Assembly: GCA_017609285.1 (NCBI GenBank)
Contig: JAFCEE010000003.1
Span: 75,529 to 139,528, forward strand
Origin: Candidatus Pacearchaeota archaeon
GTDB taxonomy: Archaea > Nanobdellota > Nanobdellia > Pacearchaeales > GW2011-AR1
Length of the DNA: 64,000 nucleotides
Direction of reading: 5' to 3'
The translations under genes and the position numbers were made by a program. The notes under the pieces were generated by a model, which ran no database searches, had not been told where the DNA came from, and saw only the letters and a program-made list of their open reading frames with translations. Of the stretch, positions 10,621-15,687 are shown piece after piece; position 1 is the first letter of the stretch, and each line of letters begins with the position of its first letter.

Positions 10621-11061
10621 ATGAGGTGTCCGTATTGCGGCAATGGAGAAACAAAAGTTACTGATAAAAGAGATTGTAAAGAAGAAGGAATCACAAGAAG
10701 AAGGAGAGAATGTTTGAAATGTAAGAGAAGATTTACAACTTATGAGAGGCCAGAGATTGAGATTGTAGTCATGAAAAAGGATGGCAGAAGAGAGCCATAC
10801 AATAGAGATAAATTATTGTTAGGTATGATAAAGGCTTGTGAGAAAAGGCCAATTTCAAGAGATAAATTAAATAAAGTTGTTGATGAAATTGAAGAAAAAC
10901 TAAGGAAGAAAGGCAAGGAAATAGAAAGCAAATATATTGGTAAGCAAGTAATGTCAAAGTTAAAGAAACTAGACAAGGTGGCTTATATTCGTTTTGCAAG
11001 TGTTTATAGAGATTTTAAAGATGTTAAAGATTTTAAAGAGGAAATTAAAAGTTTAAAATAA
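10621..11061 (+). CDS. nrdR: transcriptional repressor NrdR (zinc ribbon + ATP-cone)
   Basis: MRCPYCGNGETKVTDKRD...RRRRECLKCKRRFTTYER is the canonical NrdR N-terminus. The ATP-cone follows (VVMKKDGRREPYNRDKL...). Confidence 0.9.
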   Translation: MRCPYCGNGETKVTDKRDCKEEGITRRRRECLKCKRRFTTYERPEIEIVVMKKDGRREPYNRDKLLLGMIKACEKRPISRDKLNKVVDEIEEKLRKKGKEIESKYIGKQVMSKLKKLDKVAYIRFASVYRDFKDVKDFKEEIKSLK

Positions 11062-11114: not shown

Positions 11115-13142
11115 ATGGTAAGCAAGATAAGAAAAAGAGATGGAAGAGTTGTAAAATTCAAAAAAGAAAAAATAGTTGAAGCTATCTGGAATGCTGCCAA
11201 AGCTGTTGGAGGAAAAGATAGAGAAAGAGCAGAGGAATTGGGGGAAAAAGTTGTTGAGGAGGTAGAAAAAAAATTTCATGAAAGAATTCCAAATGTAGAA
11301 GATGTTCAAGATATTGTTGAAAAAATTTTGATAGAAGAAGGGCATGCAAAAGTAGCTAAAGCTTATATTTTGTATAGAAAGAGTCATCAGGATTTAAGAG
11401 AGGCAAAGGCAATATTTGATACAATTAATGTTGTTGAGGACTATGTCGGAGAAAAGGATTGGTCAATAAAAGAAAATTCTAATATGGGATTCTCTTTACA
11501 AGGTTTAAATAATTATATAACTGAAAAAATAATTAAGAATTATTGGCTAAACAGGATATATCCAGAAGCGATAAGAAAAGCTCATCAACATGCTAAAATA
11601 CATATCCATGATTTAGGAGTTCTTGGTCCTTATTGTGTTGGTTGGGACTTAAAAGATTTATTATCATCTGGGTTTACAGGAGTTTCAGGAAAAATTCATT
11701 CAGCTCCTGCTAAGCATTTAAGAACTGCTTTGGGGCAGATGGTCAATTTTTTTTATACTTTACAAGGGGAGGCAGCTGGAGCACAAGCTTTCTCAAATTT
11801 TGATACTTTACTTGCTCCTTTTGTAAGATATGACAACCTCAATTACAAAGAAGTTAAGCAATGCTTACAAGAATTTTGTTTTAATATGGCTGTTCCTACT
11901 CGAGTAGGTTTCCAAACACCTTTTACCAATATAACTCTTGATTTGAAAGTGCCAGAATATATGAAAAATGAAGCAGTTATGATAGGAGGAAAACCGCAAA
12001 AAGAAACCTATTCAGAATTTGTTGAGGAGATGAAAATGATTAATCGCGCTTTTGCTGAAGTTATGACAGAAGGAGATGCTTCTGGTAGAGTTTTCACATT
12101 TCCTATACCAACTTACAACATAACAAAAGATTTTGACTGGGATAATCCTGATTATGATCCCATTTGGGAAATGACTGCTAAGTATGGAATACCATATTTT
12201 TCAAATTTCATAAATTCAGATATGAAACCTGAAGATGCGAGAAGTATGTGTTGCAGATTAAGGCTTGACCAAACAGAACTAAGAAAGAGAGGTGGCGGCT
12301 TATTTGGAGCTAATCCTTTAACAGGAAGTATAGGAGTGGTAACTATAAATATGCCTCGTTTAGGGTTCACTTCTGCTAATGAAAAAGAATTTTTTGAAAA
12401 ACTTGAAGAATTAATGGATTTAGCTAAGGAAAGTTTAGAGATTAAAAGAAAAGTTTTGGAAAACTTTACTGAAAAAGGCCTATATCCTTATTCAAAATTT
12501 TATTTAAGAAACATTAAAAAAAGATTTGGGAATTATTGGGAAAATCATTTCTCAACAATAGGCCTTTTAGGAATGAACGAGGCTATTATGAATTTTATGC
12601 CTGGAGAAAATATTGTGACCAAAGAAGGAAAAAAGTTTGCATTAAAAGTTTTAGATTTTATGAGGGAGAAAATTGGAGAATACCAAAATGAAACTAATCA
12701 TATTTATAATTTAGAAGCAACCCCTGCTGAAGGCACTACATACAGATTTGCAAGAGAGGACAAAAGGAGATTTGGTAAAATTAAAACAGCTAACGAGGAG
12801 GCTGTTAAAAATGGAGCAAAACCCTATTATACAAATTCTACCCAACTTCCTGTTAATTTCACAGATGACTTGTTTCTTGCCTTAGAATTACAAGATCCCT
12901 TACAAACAAAATATACTGGAGGAACTGTTTTCCATGCGTATGTTGGAGAAAGATTAGAAAAAGAAGGTGTTAAATTATTAGTAAAGAAAATAGCAGAAAA
13001 CTTTAAAATGCCTTATTTTACAATAACGCCAACTTTCTCTATTTGTCCAATACATGGCTATATTGAAGGTGAACATGAGTATTGTCCTATATGCGAATTA
13101 ATTCCTGAAGAAAAAATAAAAGAGGAGGTTAGAATAAAATGA
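11115..13142 (+). CDS. nrdD: anaerobic ribonucleoside-triphosphate reductase (class III) large chain, lacking its glycyl-radical tail
   Basis: N-terminal ATP-cone (IRKRDGRVVKFKKEKI), core TFPIPTYNIT...MCCRLRL, and C-terminal Zn site FSICPIHGYIEGEHEYCPIC. The ORF stops just before the expected glycyl-radical motif. Confidence 0.9.
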   Translation: MVSKIRKRDGRVVKFKKEKIVEAIWNAAKAVGGKDRERAEELGEKVVEEVEKKFHERIPNVEDVQDIVEKILIEEGHAKVAKAYILYRKSHQDLREAKAIFDTINVVEDYVGEKDWSIKENSNMGFSLQGLNNYITEKIIKNYWLNRIYPEAIRKAHQHAKIHIHDLGVLGPYCVGWDLKDLLSSGFTGVSGKIHSAPAKHLRTALGQMVNFFYTLQGEAAGAQAFSNFDTLLAPFVRYDNLNYKEVKQCLQEFCFNMAVPTRVGFQTPFTNITLDLKVPEYMKNEAVMIGGKPQKETYSEFVEEMKMINRAFAEVMTEGDASGRVFTFPIPTYNITKDFDWDNPDYDPIWEMTAKYGIPYFSNFINSDMKPEDARSMCCRLRLDQTELRKRGGGLFGANPLTGSIGVVTINMPRLGFTSANEKEFFEKLEELMDLAKESLEIKRKVLENFTEKGLYPYSKFYLRNIKKRFGNYWENHFSTIGLLGMNEAIMNFMPGENIVTKEGKKFALKVLDFMREKIGEYQNETNHIYNLEATPAEGTTYRFAREDKRRFGKIKTANEEAVKNGAKPYYTNSTQLPVNFTDDLFLALELQDPLQTKYTGGTVFHAYVGERLEKEGVKLLVKKIAENFKMPYFTITPTFSICPIHGYIEGEHEYCPICELIPEEKIKEEVRIK

Positions 13143-13354
13143 AAACAAAATGTGAAGTGTATAGTAGAGTTGTAGGATATTTAAGACCAGTTAGTCAGTG
13201 GAATGAAGGTAAGGCAGAAGAATTCAAAGATAGAAAACATTTTGAAATAGCAGAAAAAAGAGCAGAAGGAGAATCTATAAGTGAAGATAAAGAGATTAAA
13301 AAAACAATTCAAATACCCCCACAACAAGAACAGATAGGGCAGGTTATTTGGTAA
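13139..13354 (+). CDS. nrdD: class III RNR glycyl-radical domain encoded as a separate overlapping ORF
   Basis: MKTKCEVYSRVVGYLRPVSQWNEGKAEEFKDRKHF carries the RV.GY glycyl-radical motif and WN.GK..E...R. The ATG overlaps the nrdD stop (ATGA), and GGAGG at 13124-13128 lies 10 nt upstream. Confidence 0.75.
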   Translation: MKTKCEVYSRVVGYLRPVSQWNEGKAEEFKDRKHFEIAEKRAEGESISEDKEIKKTIQIPPQQEQIGQVIW

Positions 13355-13355
13355 G

Positions 13356-14069
13356 ATGCAGATAGCTGATTTACAAAAATTAAGCTTAATTGACTATCCT
13401 GGAAAAGTAGCTTGTACTATTTTTTTATTTGGCTGTAATTTTAGATGTGGTTTTTGTCATAATCCTGAATTGGTTTTACCTGAAAAGGCTATTACGGGTT
13501 ATAAAGAGGAAGAGGTCTTAGAATTTTTAAAAATAAGAAAGAAGTATTTGGATGGTGTATGTATTACAGGAGGCGAACCATTAATAAATTCCGATATTAT
13601 TGAATTTCTCGATAAAATTAAAAGATTGGGATATAATATAAAAATAGACACTAATGGCTCTAATCCTGAATTGCTTAAAAATATTATTGAAAAAAAATTA
13701 GTAGATTATATCGCCTTAGATGTTAAGGCAGACAAAAATAATTATGATTTAGTTATTGGAAAAAGTGTAGATTTAAAAAAAATCGAAGAGAGTGTTGGGT
13801 TAATTTTGGACTCTGGTTTAGATTATGAATTTAGGACTACTGTTGTTAGAGGATATCATAATCAAAAAAATCTGAAAGAGATTGGCGAGTGGTTATTTAA
13901 AATTAGAGAAAGTAAGCCTAGAAGATATGTAATACAAAATTTTATTCCAAGAGAGAGAAAGCTTATAGACGAGAAATTTGAGAAAATAAAATCTTTTGAA
14001 AATAAAGAGCTTGAGGAAATGAAGAATGCTGTTTCCAAATATTTTGAGGAGGTAATTGTTAGGAGCTAA
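13356..14069 (+). CDS. nrdG: anaerobic RNR activating enzyme (radical SAM)
   Basis: LIDYPGKVACTIFLFGCNFRCGFCHNPEL (CxxxCxxC) and GVCITGGEPL. It starts 1 nt after the upstream stop. Confidence 0.85.
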   Translation: MQIADLQKLSLIDYPGKVACTIFLFGCNFRCGFCHNPELVLPEKAITGYKEEEVLEFLKIRKKYLDGVCITGGEPLINSDIIEFLDKIKRLGYNIKIDTNGSNPELLKNIIEKKLVDYIALDVKADKNNYDLVIGKSVDLKKIEESVGLILDSGLDYEFRTTVVRGYHNQKNLKEIGEWLFKIRESKPRRYVIQNFIPRERKLIDEKFEKIKSFENKELEEMKNAVSKYFEEVIVRS

Positions 14070-14122: not shown

Positions 14123-15148
14123 ATGATAATTGGATTGACTGGCACAAAAGCTGGTGGGAAAGGAGCAGTTGCTGAGATATTGAAAGAGAAAGGTTTCTTC
14201 TATACATCCCTTTCTGATAGAGTTAGAGAAGAAGCTGTTGAAAGAGGTTTAAATAATTATACTGTCAAAGATTTGCAGGATATAGGAAATGAGTTAAGAG
14301 AAAAATTTGGAAATAATGTTCTTGTTAAAAGAACTATTCAGATGATTGAAGGAAAAGAAAATGTTGTTATAGATGGGATAAGAAATGTTGGAGAAATTCA
14401 AGAACTCAAAAAAGATGGTGCTATAATAATTGCGGTTGATGCTCCTCTTAACATAAGATATGAAAGATTAATAAGAAGAGGCAGAGATTCTGATCCAAAA
14501 GACTGGAATTCTTTTATTGAAATGGATAGAAGAGATAAAGGGATAAATGAAGAAAATTCAGGACAGCAAGTAGAAAAATGTATAGAGTTAGCAGATTATA
14601 AAATTTATAATGATAGTAGTTTAGAAAATTTGAAAAGAAAGGTAGAGGGGATTTTAATGAATATTAATTTAGATAAAAAAAGGGCAAGCTGGGATGAATA
14701 TTTTATGAAAATGGCTGCATTAATTGCTGAACGTTCGACTTGTTTGAGGCATCATGTAGGGGCGGTAGTTGTAAAAGGAAAAAGAGTTTTGACTACCGGT
14801 TATAATGGGGCTGCAAGAGGGACAAAAGATTGTTTAGAATTGGGCTGTTTAAGGGACGATTTAGGAATTGAATCTGGGACAAGACACGAAATATGCAGGG
14901 CTATACATGCAGAACAGAACGCTATTATACAAGCAGGATTACATGGCATTAATATTGACGGAAGTGTAATGTATTGTACTCATACGCCCTGTATGATTTG
15001 TGCAAAAATGATTGTGAATGCAGGAATAAAAGAAGTTGTAAGTTATCATGATTATGCTGATGAAGAAGCTAGAAAATTTTTAGAGGGTGCAGGAGTTAAA
15101 TTGAGAAAAATTTCCAAACCTGATAATATTATAAAATTTAAAGATTAG
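14123..15148 (+). CDS. fusion of a P-loop nucleotide kinase-like domain and dCMP deaminase
   Basis: N-terminal MIIGLTGTKAGGKGAV (Walker A). The C-terminal half has HAEQNAI and THTPCMICAKMI (CMP/dCMP deaminase zinc motifs). Confidence 0.8.
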   Translation: MIIGLTGTKAGGKGAVAEILKEKGFFYTSLSDRVREEAVERGLNNYTVKDLQDIGNELREKFGNNVLVKRTIQMIEGKENVVIDGIRNVGEIQELKKDGAIIIAVDAPLNIRYERLIRRGRDSDPKDWNSFIEMDRRDKGINEENSGQQVEKCIELADYKIYNDSSLENLKRKVEGILMNINLDKKRASWDEYFMKMAALIAERSTCLRHHVGAVVVKGKRVLTTGYNGAARGTKDCLELGCLRDDLGIESGTRHEICRAIHAEQNAIIQAGLHGINIDGSVMYCTHTPCMICAKMIVNAGIKEVVSYHDYADEEARKFLEGAGVKLRKISKPDNIIKFKD

Positions 15149-15208
15149 AAAACTTTATTAATACTCATTTCTGAAATCTTGATTATAAGAAAGCGGGGAA
15201 AAATAAAA

Positions 15209-15541
15209 ATGGCAGAAGTTGAGAATGGAGTTGATGAAATTTCAGAAAAAGAATTTCAGGAGAAGATTAATGAGATGTTTGTAGTAGTAGATTTTTTTGC
15301 CGAGTGGTGTATGCCCTGTTTAATGATGTCTCCTATTATTGAGGAACTTGCTAAAAAATTTAAAGGCAAGATAGAATTTGTAAAAGTTAATGTAGATGAT
15401 AATTCTTCTCTTGCAAATAAATTAGGAATCATGAGTATACCAACCCTTGTTATTTTTAAAGAAGGAAAAGAGATAGAAAGATTAACAGGAGCTATATCAA
15501 GTGAACAATTAGAAGAGAAACTAAAAAGCTTGGTAAGATAA
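15209..15541 (+). CDS. trxA: thioredoxin
   Basis: VVDFFAEWCMPCLMMSP (CxxC active site, CMPC variant) and MSIPTLVIFKEGKE. The ORF track starts at 15179; ATG 15209 (MAEVENG) is more likely. Confidence 0.85.
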   Translation: MAEVENGVDEISEKEFQEKINEMFVVVDFFAEWCMPCLMMSPIIEELAKKFKGKIEFVKVNVDDNSSLANKLGIMSIPTLVIFKEGKEIERLTGAISSEQLEEKLKSLVR

Positions 15542-15581: not shown

Positions 15582-15687
15582 GGCTCCGTAGCTCAGCCTG
15601 GTTAGAGCACCGGCCTTTTAAACTGAACTATAACAGGAGATAAACAAAGAAAGCCGGGTGTCGAGGGTTCAAATCCCTCCGGGGCCA
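15582..15687 (+). tRNA. tRNA-Lys(UUU) with a 31-nt intron at the canonical 37/38 position
   Basis: Acceptor GGCUCCG/CGGGGCC; D arm GCUC-AGCCUGGUUA-GAGC; anticodon stem CCGGC/GCCGG with loop CU-UUU-A then intron 15621-15651 then A; variable GUGUC; T arm GAGGG-UUCAAAU-CCCUC; discriminator A. No CCA is encoded. An AT-rich TATA-like element lies ~25 nt upstream. Confidence 0.85.

Follow-up and report, generated by a model that had tools for sequence, protein, structure and literature searches.

A 64,000-nucleotide stretch of archaeal DNA (the window), from a metagenome assembly with a genome G+C content of 30.5%, encodes a class III ribonucleotide reductase (RNR) as two genes. The nrdD gene stops just past the zinc ribbon, and the glycyl-radical loop is the product of a small, separate open reading frame. 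The pair is very likely a natural, obligate two-subunit class III RNR; complex formation and activity are inferred, and there is no direct evidence for either. The data show the two-gene architecture and its conservation, along with signals for independent initiation, purifying selection on both pieces and a catalytic core that is intact. Class III RNR is the textbook example among glycyl-radical enzymes and may represent the ancestral RNR, and to our knowledge no characterised member carries its radical off the catalytic chain. The features of the locus are as follows.

10621-11061, + strand, nrdR-like regulator gene (Pfam Zn_ribbon_NrdR, E = 2e-16; ATP-cone, E = 2.7e-21)
11115-13142, + strand, nrdD large subunit, 675 aa, stop codon TGA at 13140-13142
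13044-13094, + strand, zinc-ribbon coding segment (C644-x2-H647 ... C657-x2-C660)
13095-13139, + strand, 15-aa large-subunit tail, ELIPEEKIKEEVRIK, an insertion relative to fused NrdDs
13124-13129, + strand, Shine-Dalgarno sequence GGAGGT (GGAGG at 13124-13128), 9-10 nt 5' of the small-ORF ATG
13139-13142, + strand, ATGA overlap of the small-ORF start and the large-ORF stop, -1 frame
13139-13354, + strand, small subunit, 71 aa (Pfam NRDD positions 531-562 of 562)
13356-14069, + strand, nrdG activase, radical SAM (NCBIfam TIGR02495 NrdG2, 213 bits against a cut-off of 131)
14123-15148, + strand, fusion of a kinase-like AAA_18 domain and a dCMP deaminase (Pfam dCMP_cyt_deam_1, E = 3.7e-26; AAA_18, E = 1.2e-11)
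15179-15541, + strand, thioredoxin (Pfam Thioredoxin, E = 3.8e-29)

The large ORF belongs to the class III RNRs by sequence and exceeds the curated cut-offs. It matches Pfam NRDD (PF13597) over positions 1-528 of 562 (E = 4e-183, 610 bits, cut-off 26) and NCBIfam PRK08270 with 1060 bits (cut-off 548). The chain contains an ATP-cone, the catalytic barrel, the finger-loop MCCR cysteines (aa 378-381) and a zinc ribbon, which is its last conserved element. All 185 columns with a conservation of 95% or more across 47 fused NrdDs are present. The ten-stranded alpha/beta barrel with a finger loop for the radical cysteines, a structural hallmark of the class, is present: an AlphaFold2 model of the barrel has a pLDDT of 80-97 and a low-confidence finger loop (pLDDT <50), and its top Foldseek matches are all class III RNRs (8P2C, 9D3X, 4COI and 1H78; E = 1e-20 to 1e-31). 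The zinc site, C644-P-I-H647 ... C657-P-I-C660, draws all four ligands from the large chain; its counterpart in Thermotoga maritima NrdD (PDB 4COI) is the CxxxH...CPVC segment, to which it aligns. The class feature that is not met is a zinc site and an RVxGY loop on the barrel polypeptide. The glycyl-radical loop is absent from the large subunit and its RVVGY sequence lies on the 71-aa product. The two chains are classed as a variant rather than a standard NrdD because the radical loop is on a separate chain.

The small ORF has the radical motif SRVVGY at residues 9-14, with Gly13 encoded by nt 13175-13177. Its core (aa 1-35) is MKTKCEVYSRVVGYLRPVSQWNEGKAEEFKDRKHF, followed by a 36-aa lineage-specific C-terminal extension. 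Family matches were found only to NrdD models (PF13597 positions 531-562, E = 1.7e-10, 40.6 bits), and no match to PFL/Gly_radical or GrcA models was detected at E values up to 0.01. A homologue search returned 955 proteins, of which the 120 best range from 39 to 98 aa. An exhaustive search of 1.84 billion representative proteins gave the same size class: among the top 150 clusters (50% identity), 147 are stand-alone Gly-loop proteins of 40-95 aa, all shorter than 100 aa. Methionine is the first residue in 241 of 265 short Gly-loop proteins and no upstream CxxC is found in 250 of the 265; the most frequent N-terminus of the free protein is MKTKC. The conserved Cys5 was considered as a zinc ligand and rejected, given the four ligands (C, H, C, C) on the large chain; the equivalent residue in T. 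maritima NrdD is Val. Both pieces are under purifying selection. Comparison with the relative L001 (~86% identical in NrdD) showed 11 synonymous and 2 non-synonymous codon changes in the small-ORF core and 211 synonymous and 95 non-synonymous changes in the large ORF.

The two ORFs meet at position 649 of the PRK08270 profile, and together they cover the Pfam and NCBIfam profiles contiguously. The sole difference from T. maritima NrdD at the junction is the 15-aa insertion between CPVCG and KAKVDEYMRIVGYL. The cut coincides exactly with the hinge that joins the zinc ribbon to the radical loop. The inserted tail contains the ribosome-binding site for the small ORF, and an in-frame TAG (13130-13132) lies two codons 5' of its ATG. 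GGAGGT occurs only 19 times in the window, both strands counted, and Shine-Dalgarno motifs precede only 7 of its 36 genes (background 0.11). Chance falls far short of explaining this fit of profiles and signals. These observations confirm the layout described in the original prediction, namely a 675-aa NrdD ending with TGA at 13140-13142 right after its zinc site, a glycyl-radical motif in a 71-aa ORF in the -1 frame that starts at ATG 13139 in an ATGA overlap, and the GGAGG and TAG upstream of that ATG.

DNA was available for 16 junctions. The small ORF starts with ATG in 16/16, and GGAGG or GGAGGT is located 1-9 nt 5' of this ATG in 12, while 3 others have a weaker, purine-rich match. The geometry around these signals is free. 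The spacing of the pieces runs from -29 to +124 nt, their relative frame is 0, 1 or 2 in 4, 6 and 6 cases, and TGA, TAA and TAG are all used as large-ORF stops. The ATGA overlap recurs in L001, L007 and the bacterial locus L086. A one-A difference in the run between L002 and L004 shifts the large-ORF stop and frame and leaves the small ORF unchanged. In the Bacillota locus L020, nrdG sits between the two pieces. The own ATG and Shine-Dalgarno sequence and the variety of junctions make it very likely that the small ORF initiates independently of nrdD, in the absence of expression data. The prediction of independent initiation and a separate radical subunit is therefore supported by the splits in relatives, the free junction geometry, the conserved ATG and Shine-Dalgarno sequence, and the L020 arrangement.

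The original prediction would have failed if relatives all carried an uninterrupted nrdD with an otherwise identical sequence; most do not. NrdD ends after the zinc ribbon (CPxC), without the Gly loop, in 116 of the 120 closest homologues (73-84% identity), and the 4 fused homologues are scattered within the split clade. The large-subunit tails of the 116 are unconserved and vary from 4 to >100 aa. The relative L001 comes from a different sample and has the identical ATGA overlap. The split state spans a clade with about 25% sequence divergence and several phyla, and the same cut site is found in DPANN archaea, Patescibacteria, Hippea-like bacteria and Bacillota. Because the neighbor-joining trees lack support values, how often the gene was split and re-fused is uncertain; every genome concerned is a metagenome assembly from an uncultured organism. 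When 50,697 phage records were searched by tblastn with the core peptide, 4 matches were obtained and no split nrdD was seen among them. Three matches lie under an annotated nrdD, including a fused NrdD in an Oceanotoga phage (the sole phage annotation inspected), and the fourth record is unannotated.

The gene neighborhood is also retained. The nrdR-like gene, consisting of a zinc ribbon and an ATP-cone, opens the cluster and has an equivalent position in relatives L001-L005. A dedicated NrdG encoded alongside, a further feature of class III RNRs, is present: nrdG starts 1 nt past the small-ORF stop and also follows the small ORF in L001-L005, L061 and L086-L089. The order nrdR, nrdD, small ORF, nrdG was found repeatedly in archaea and bacteria. 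The AAA_18/dCMP deaminase fusion gene is kept in L001, and its role in nucleotide metabolism as a member of the nrdD cluster is inferred from sequence alone. The thioredoxin is the likely reductant for the double-cysteine (MCCR) NrdD; the MCCR class is linked to thioredoxin (PMC9669993). In the L002 group, the gene next after nrdG is thioredoxin-reductase-like.

The proposed mechanism starts with separate synthesis of the 71-aa product from its own GGAGGT and ATG, which would be translationally coupled to the end of nrdD. The peptide would then provide the buried radical loop in trans to the 675-aa chain, and NrdG would convert Gly13 to a stable glycyl radical. Homology to solved NrdD structures and the PFL-YfiD precedent suggest that the peptide loop enters beside the finger-loop cysteines and that NrdG activates the peptide either free or docked. 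The enzyme is expected to work only as a two-chain complex because the large subunit lacks a radical glycine. Expression, complex formation, activity, glycyl radical formation and NTP reduction by the split enzyme are inferred without direct evidence. AlphaFold2 prediction on the concatenated chains gave a pLDDT of 35 without an alignment, and a pseudo-fusion with a 149-row alignment gave a good barrel with a pLDDT <50 for residues 640-746. Radical-loop docking rests on homology alone because no confident loop placement was obtained. A second complete nrdD or another RNR class may exist beyond the visible 64 kb.

The canonical NrdD and NrdG systems (T4, Escherichia coli, T. maritima and P. copri) share the ATP-cone, barrel, MCCR, zinc ribbon and RVxGY motif with the system described here, as well as the nrdD-nrdG operon and fold. 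In canonical NrdD, the zinc ribbon, radical loop and C-terminal tail form one C-terminal domain on the same chain (PMC11226230), whereas here the chain stops past the zinc ribbon and a second gene encodes the radical loop. NrdD's glycyl-radical domain is mobile as a unit and can be disordered throughout (PMC11226230).

The small ORF resembles GrcA/YfiD (and T4 Y06I) in being a small stand-alone glycyl-radical loop protein and, on the proposed mechanism, in being activated by the cognate radical-SAM enzyme and pairing in trans with a large barrel subunit. A glycyl-radical domain given in trans restores pyruvate formate-lyase (PFL) activity (PMC8683613), and a 2026 review lists formate lyases as the only glycyl-radical enzyme class with known spare parts (PMC13450708). 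The likeness to GrcA that had been predicted holds as an analogy only. GrcA belongs to the PFL family and the small ORF to the NrdD family. GrcA duplicates a domain of an intact enzyme and is a spare used only after oxygen cleavage, whereas the peptide here is obligatory. The defining feature of a spare part, a host enzyme with its own radical domain, is not met since the adjacent NrdD lacks the loop. Only the loop is detached here, and the zinc ribbon stays with the large subunit. The spare-part feature is better fitted by a separate family of orphan NrdD-type radical domains of ~116 aa in Desulfobacterota. The orphan domain of L072 and the complete NrdD of L059 share one metagenome-assembled genome, the sole case that could be checked. 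These orphan domains may be GrcA-like spare parts because a complete NrdD is encoded in the same genome, a suggestion that rests on this one genome.

Two other systems divide an RNR gene. In Pseudomonas aeruginosa and some phages, the class II NrdJa/NrdJb chain is cut near the C-terminus into adjacent genes (phage cases, PMC3653736), and both products are required and active as (NrdJa-NrdJb)2 (PMC4520616). That class is B12-dependent, and NrdJb holds the C-terminal redox-active cysteines rather than the radical site. Phage nrdD genes with group I introns, inteins or homing endonucleases are also in several pieces (PMC3653736), but there the intervening elements are spliced out at the RNA or protein level, or the fragmentation is unexplained and occurs in single phages. 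The 15-aa tail and 4-aa N-terminus found here are too short for such elements, and the junction consists of a stop, a Shine-Dalgarno sequence and a start.

The alternative that survives best is neutral gene fission, in which the two chains are permanently assembled, behave as a fused NrdD, and the break is merely tolerated at the hinge. Split genes are common in DPANN archaea (PMC6349945), the fused forms scattered in the split clade suggest easy interconversion, and the large-subunit tails are unconserved. Against it are the identical cut site in distant lineages, the predominance of the split form in its clade (116/120), and the existence of the separate orphan family. None of the three is decisive, and the balance tips slightly against neutral fission. 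Taken together, recurrence, dominance and the orphan family hint at an inherent benefit of a free radical module. It is not settled whether the split is neutral or adaptive, in the latter case as a cheap, replaceable and oxygen-sacrificial module or through easier NrdG access.

The original prediction offered a programmed -1 frameshift as an alternative to independent initiation: tRNA-Lys would slip on A-AAA at the TGA and yield a fused full-length NrdD. On a strict version of this view, the fused protein is the functional enzyme and the small ORF merely the latter part of a recoded gene. At the junction, the window, L001 and L007 read ATA/GTA-AAA-TGA, and a -1 slip would join the frames exactly. 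The slip is possible in these three loci, but as a general mechanism it fails on the other members, in which the stop is in the same frame, the gap is long or a slippery run is missing. The stop is in the same frame and followed by 2-5 codons in L002, L006, L010 and L056; gaps of 14-124 nt separate the pieces in L019, L061, L067 and L071, and L031 has a 29-nt overlap. L086 has the ATGA overlap without a slippery run (TTA-TGA), and in L020 nrdG lies between the pieces. There is no common recoding signal, all three frame relations occur among the 16 junctions, and slippery A-AAA is present in few. No small ORF lacks an ATG of its own, a strong Shine-Dalgarno sequence precedes nearly all of them, and the commonest free-protein start is MKTKC. 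The frameshift explanation is very unlikely, and a minor fused product in the sub-lineage of the window, L001 and L007 remains possible.

A decaying nrdD pseudogene in a reduced symbiont genome, with the small ORF as a remnant, is also very unlikely. DPANN archaea have reduced genomes with known fragmented genes (PMC6349945), but the conserved catalytic and structural columns are intact (185/185), synonymous changes are in excess in both pieces, and the split persists across the diverged clade and several phyla. The nrdG gene still adjoins, and its product is not known to have a substrate other than NrdD. A sequencing or assembly artefact, in which a homopolymer indel in the A-run broke a normal nrdD, had been raised originally and is all but excluded. 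The junction is A-rich and the sequence comes from a low-G+C metagenome assembly, but many assemblies and samples of independent origin share this architecture (JGI, NCBI, ENA and Logan), one indel cannot yield a 15-aa insertion, stop, Shine-Dalgarno sequence and ATG at once, and L001 retains the overlap despite 306 diverged nrdD codons. An alternative genetic code with TGA as sense was rejected, as TAA, TAG and TGA all serve as large-ORF stops among relatives, in different frames. The 15-aa tail and 4-nt overlap leave no room for a split intein or an intron, and both were likewise rejected; neither ORF has an intein Pfam match at the junction and no Rfam intron was found in the window.

The literature searched, which covered few subscription journals, yielded no account of a split class III RNR or of a stand-alone radical protein of the NrdD type. 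If the two-subunit reading is correct, no natural substrate of a glycyl-radical activase is known that is smaller than this peptide of 40-70 residues, and the zinc ribbon and radical loop are separable modules. A split system would simplify the study of NrdG access to the glycine and of loop entry into the barrel. It also makes spare-part repair beyond PFL, so far only speculation in the PFL field (PMC8683613), directly testable.

The original prediction went further and described a detachable radical cofactor. A separate subunit is supported, and its exchangeability is only inferred. A bolder reading, possible at most, is that the peptide is a diffusible, exchangeable protein cofactor whose free 5-8 kDa form is activated by NrdG. 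The activated peptide may dock into the barrel and may be replaced by a new copy after oxygen cleavage at the glycyl radical, and the Desulfobacterota domains could be the matching spare parts for fused NrdDs. An exchangeable peptide would provide cheap, built-in RNR repair for anaerobes with tiny genomes and would extend radical-domain replacement to a second glycyl-radical enzyme family.

Annotation pipelines call the large piece a complete NrdD, and the small ORF is often missed or mislabelled. Because of this mislabelling, metabolic reconstructions of DPANN and CPR organisms and RNR alignments may count the genes as truncated or lose the radical site.

Profile matches to Pfam and NCBIfam show that one NrdD is divided over two ORFs. 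Positions 1-528 of Pfam NRDD match the large ORF and 531-562 match the small ORF, and the large- and small-ORF matches to NCBIfam PRK08270 abut at position 649. The two pieces and the adjacent activase gene are as follows.

11115-13142: nrdD large ORF, 675 aa; ATP-cone, NRDD barrel, MCCR finger-loop motif at aa 378-381, zinc ribbon
ATG at 13139: small ORF, 71 aa, in the -1 frame; ATGA overlap with the large ORF
13356-14069: nrdG, beginning 1 nt past the small-ORF stop; TIGR02495, 213 bits

The finger-loop motif is the double-cysteine MCCR, and the zinc ribbon (C644-P-I-H647 ... C657-P-I-C660) is followed by a tail of 15 residues, ELIPEEKIKEEVRIK, and the stop TGA at 13140-13142. A GGAGGT at 13124-13129 lies 9 nt 5' of the small-ORF ATG, and an in-frame TAG is found two codons 5' of the same ATG. 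The small protein begins MKTKCEVYSRVVGYLRPVSQWNEGKAEEFKDRKHF, and its glycyl-radical motif includes Gly13 (nt 13175-13177). The original prediction of a class III RNR split into two overlapping ORFs held exactly for the ORFs, stop, overlap, Shine-Dalgarno (SD) motif and in-frame TAG when the sequence was rechecked.

The cluster order is nrdR-like, nrdD-large, small ORF, nrdG, kinase-like/dCMP-deaminase fusion and thioredoxin, with a tRNA and rpoH/rpoB on the 3' side. The genome is that of an AT-rich archaeon (30.5% G+C), and its closest NrdD relatives carry the labels Woesearchaeota, Pacearchaeota or Nanoarchaeota. The gene directly 5' of nrdD (10621-11061) encodes an NrdR-type repressor (zinc ribbon plus ATP-cone) in an archaeon, and it occupies the same place in the related archaeal loci L001-L005. 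The fusion gene (14123-15148) joins an AAA_18 kinase-like domain to a dCMP/cytidine deaminase domain; its place beside nrdD, nrdG and thioredoxin and its retention in L001, a relative ~86% identical in NrdD, suggest that the cluster is a compact dNTP-supply operon. The 106-nt tRNA between the thioredoxin gene and rpoH (15582-15687; Rfam, 59 bits; not reported by ARAGORN) is likely an intron-containing archaeal tRNA.

The split is widespread. A search with the small protein retrieved 955 homologues, of which the top 120 all fall between 39 and 98 aa. A profile built from 24 of these homologues was used for an exhaustive search of 1.84 billion representative proteins and gave 4,978 matches; 147 of the 150 top clusters (50% identity) were shorter than 100 aa. 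The short proteins are not fragments of fused genes because most start with M (241/265) and lack a CxxC ahead of the Gly motif (250/265). Their commonest N-terminus is MKTKC. The comparison of nrdD in related genomes proposed with the original prediction gave the same answer: 116 of the 120 closest large-subunit homologues (73-84% identity) stop soon after CPxC with unconserved tails. The other four are fused and dispersed within the split clade of a neighbour-joining tree, a pattern that suggests an old split and occasional re-fusion, a conclusion that remains tentative because the tree lacks support values.

When one genome was scanned for each species, 80 loci with the radical motif were located and then classified as split or fused. 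Split forms were found in 6/6 Woesearchaeota, three further archaea, one Patescibacteria, one Hippea and one Bacillota. Fused forms were found in Paceibacteria/Parcubacteria, Thermoplasmata, Bathyarchaeota, one Aenigmarchaeota, many bacteria and, with a long linker, a Nanoarchaeota archaeon. Most split forms cluster in the neighbour-joining tree, with fused Thermoplasmatales and a Saccharibacteria sequence nested among them, and the split Patescibacteria case is placed far away. Therefore, fission at this hinge, or transfer of the split operon, likely took place repeatedly. In this group several of the NrdD genes, fused and split alike, encode ~1000-1150 aa (L009:986-4171, L016:956-4120, L017:1028-4126; P0278, P0289, P0293, P0323). 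The long NrdDs with Pfam annotation have intein/LAGLIDADG domains (PF14528, PF14890) within the barrel, and L009, L016 and L017 are possible intein candidates by length alone. These insertions have no relation to the hinge split.

The pseudo-fused window sequence aligns throughout with Thermotoga maritima NrdD (4COI) save for one 15-residue insertion between CPVCG and KAKVDEYMRIVGYL. The cryo-EM structure of P. copri NrdD orders the radical domain as structural zinc site, buried radical-glycine loop and C-terminal tail (PMC11226230). Therefore, the gene is cut at the hinge between the zinc site and the radical loop. The inserted segment provides the stop, ribosome-binding site and start, as seen when the fused Aenigmarchaeota relative (CPKC-E-K-KTKCEVYSR) is set against the window (CPIC-E-(LIPEEKIKEEVRIK, stop, M)-KTKCEVYSR). 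The window small protein also has a 36-aa C-terminal extension, EIAEKRAEGESISEDKEIKKTIQIPPQQEQIGQVIW (nt 13244-13351), common only to its closest relatives P0002-P0005; most homologues stop 5-15 residues past the core. The C-terminal tail of P. copri NrdD crosses the surface at the matching position (PMC11226230).

What the sequence shows is a pair of genes whose translation signals are coupled, a catalytic subunit that is intact but has no radical glycine, a radical peptide that is conserved, and an activase gene next to them. The peptide is predicted to put its loop into the barrel beside C379/C380, like the covalently linked loop of the T4, T. maritima and P. copri enzymes of known structure, and NrdG would take the hydrogen from Gly13. 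AlphaFold2 models of the pseudo-fusion left the radical domain unresolved, so docking of the peptide remains inferred. A trans-acting loop is plausible because NrdD has a radical domain of high mobility that can be wholly disordered (PMC11226230), YfiD/GrcA activated by PFL-AE restores pyruvate formate-lyase (PFL) in trans (PMC8683613), and a split class II RNR is active as (NrdJa-NrdJb)2 (PMC4520616). The MCCR motif, placed among the known finger-loop classes of NrdD (PMC9669993), and the adjacent thioredoxin gene point to an NrdD that is likely of the thioredoxin-dependent type, although this is inferred; the L002 group of related loci has a thioredoxin reductase in the cluster. Hippea-like bacteria (L061:60-636, L086:1468-3677) have the large-subunit tail KQEKLDAIEEEIRLLESKLKEV and the small-protein N-terminus TKKDIERRIAELENQKSK. 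Judged by eye only, these look like charged heptad-like helices and may form a coiled-coil tether of the two chains.

Oxygen cleaves glycyl-radical enzymes (GREs) at the radical glycine (PMC13450708, PMC8683613). A split enzyme would lose only a replaceable 5-8 kDa peptide to oxygen, but this exchangeable-module reading is inferred and we lean against it. NrdG may also gain easier access to a free peptide. A neutral break at a hinge that tolerates it, in lineages where split genes are common (PMC6349945), accounts for the data just as well.

A -1 slip on A-AAA-TGA was the second reading in the original prediction and would yield a fused NrdD. The run is present at the junctions of the window, L001 and L007, where slippage is physically possible, but it is neither needed nor general. 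In 16 junctions with DNA, the large-ORF stop and the small-ORF ATG overlapped by as much as 29 nt or lay up to 124 nt apart; the relative frame was 0, +1 or +2 (4, 6 and 6 junctions), and TGA, TAA and TAG were all used as stops. The small ORF started with ATG in all 16, with GGAGG or GGAGGT 1-9 nt 5' of it in 12 and a weaker match in three more. In the near-identical genomes L002 and L004 (3960-4001 in each), the 9-10-nt A-run of the large-subunit tail is one A longer in one than in the other. The change shifts the large-ORF stop and frame and leaves the small ORF unaffected. One tail ends ...KKKIIARR and the other ...KKK, which indicates the tail is not under constraint. In a Bacillota MAG (L020:70-1747), nrdG (812-1591) intervenes between the nrdD body (end ...CPKCEAEEKAKNNE) and the small Gly-loop ORF (GTG, 1607-1747). 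Bacterial genomes with UvrA and Fur neighbours have the arrangement NrdD(678)-ATGA-58 aa-ATGA-NrdG, and their TTA-TGA junction lacks a slippery run. Independent initiation of the small ORF, the reading originally preferred, therefore held. SD motifs are scarce in the window (before 7/36 genes among long ORFs, background 0.11; 19 GGAGGT in 128 kb, both strands), so GGAGGT before the small ORF is a specific signal. Full GGAGG occurs chiefly before internal operon genes (13139, 30618, 40231, 43168), a placement that suggests most first genes are leaderless.

Selection acts on both pieces. Of the columns conserved in ≥95% of 47 fused NrdDs, 185/185 have the consensus residue in the large subunit. 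Codon comparison with L001 gave 11 synonymous and 2 non-synonymous differences in the small-ORF core (aa 1-35) and 211 and 95, respectively, in the large ORF. These data are evidence against a pseudogene and a sequencing artefact, and the sequencing error raised in the original prediction fails since L001, from another sample, has the same ATGA overlap and synonymous excess.

By all but one of the criteria tested, the window system is a class III RNR; the exception is a defining feature, in that part of its radical domain lies off the catalytic chain, unlike that of standard members. The predicted likeness to GrcA/YfiD held in part. The small protein is likewise a free radical-bearing protein, but it is outside the GrcA family and is not a spare. 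NrdJa/NrdJb is also a C-terminal split of an RNR and differs in RNR class and in the functional element cut; a 2015 paper on NrdJ presents it as a unique split RNR of a free-living organism (PMC4520616). The RNR family surveys searched do not mention a split class III RNR, and within a literature search that excluded most subscription journals it appears to be an undescribed form of a known enzyme class.

Seven Desulfobacterota/Thermodesulfobacteriota loci encode a monocistronic orphan protein of ~93-117 aa.

L018:3770-4108, orphan radical protein
L046:3764-4114, orphan radical protein
L047:3764-4111, orphan radical protein
L072:3761-4099, orphan radical protein
L074:3761-4099, orphan radical protein
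L039:3779-4099, orphan radical protein
L037:481-759, orphan radical protein
L091-L095, further orphan loci

The protein combines its own CxxC...CxxC ribbon with an NrdD radical loop (CHDC...KCxxC...NFQKCEVYSRVVGYLRP), and its match to the NRDD profile is confined to the final ~50 positions. No nrd genes were found near the orphan loci. We regard it as a candidate spare part of class III RNR in the manner of GrcA, possibly the NrdD-type counterpart of that protein. A June 2026 review lists formate lyases as the sole GREs with known small spare-part proteins, and a true spare part here would be of a type unknown outside them (PMC13450708). The orphan proteins form at least 120 clusters at 90% identity, and in MAG JASFPT01 an orphan (L072) occurs together with a fused NrdD that is complete (L059).
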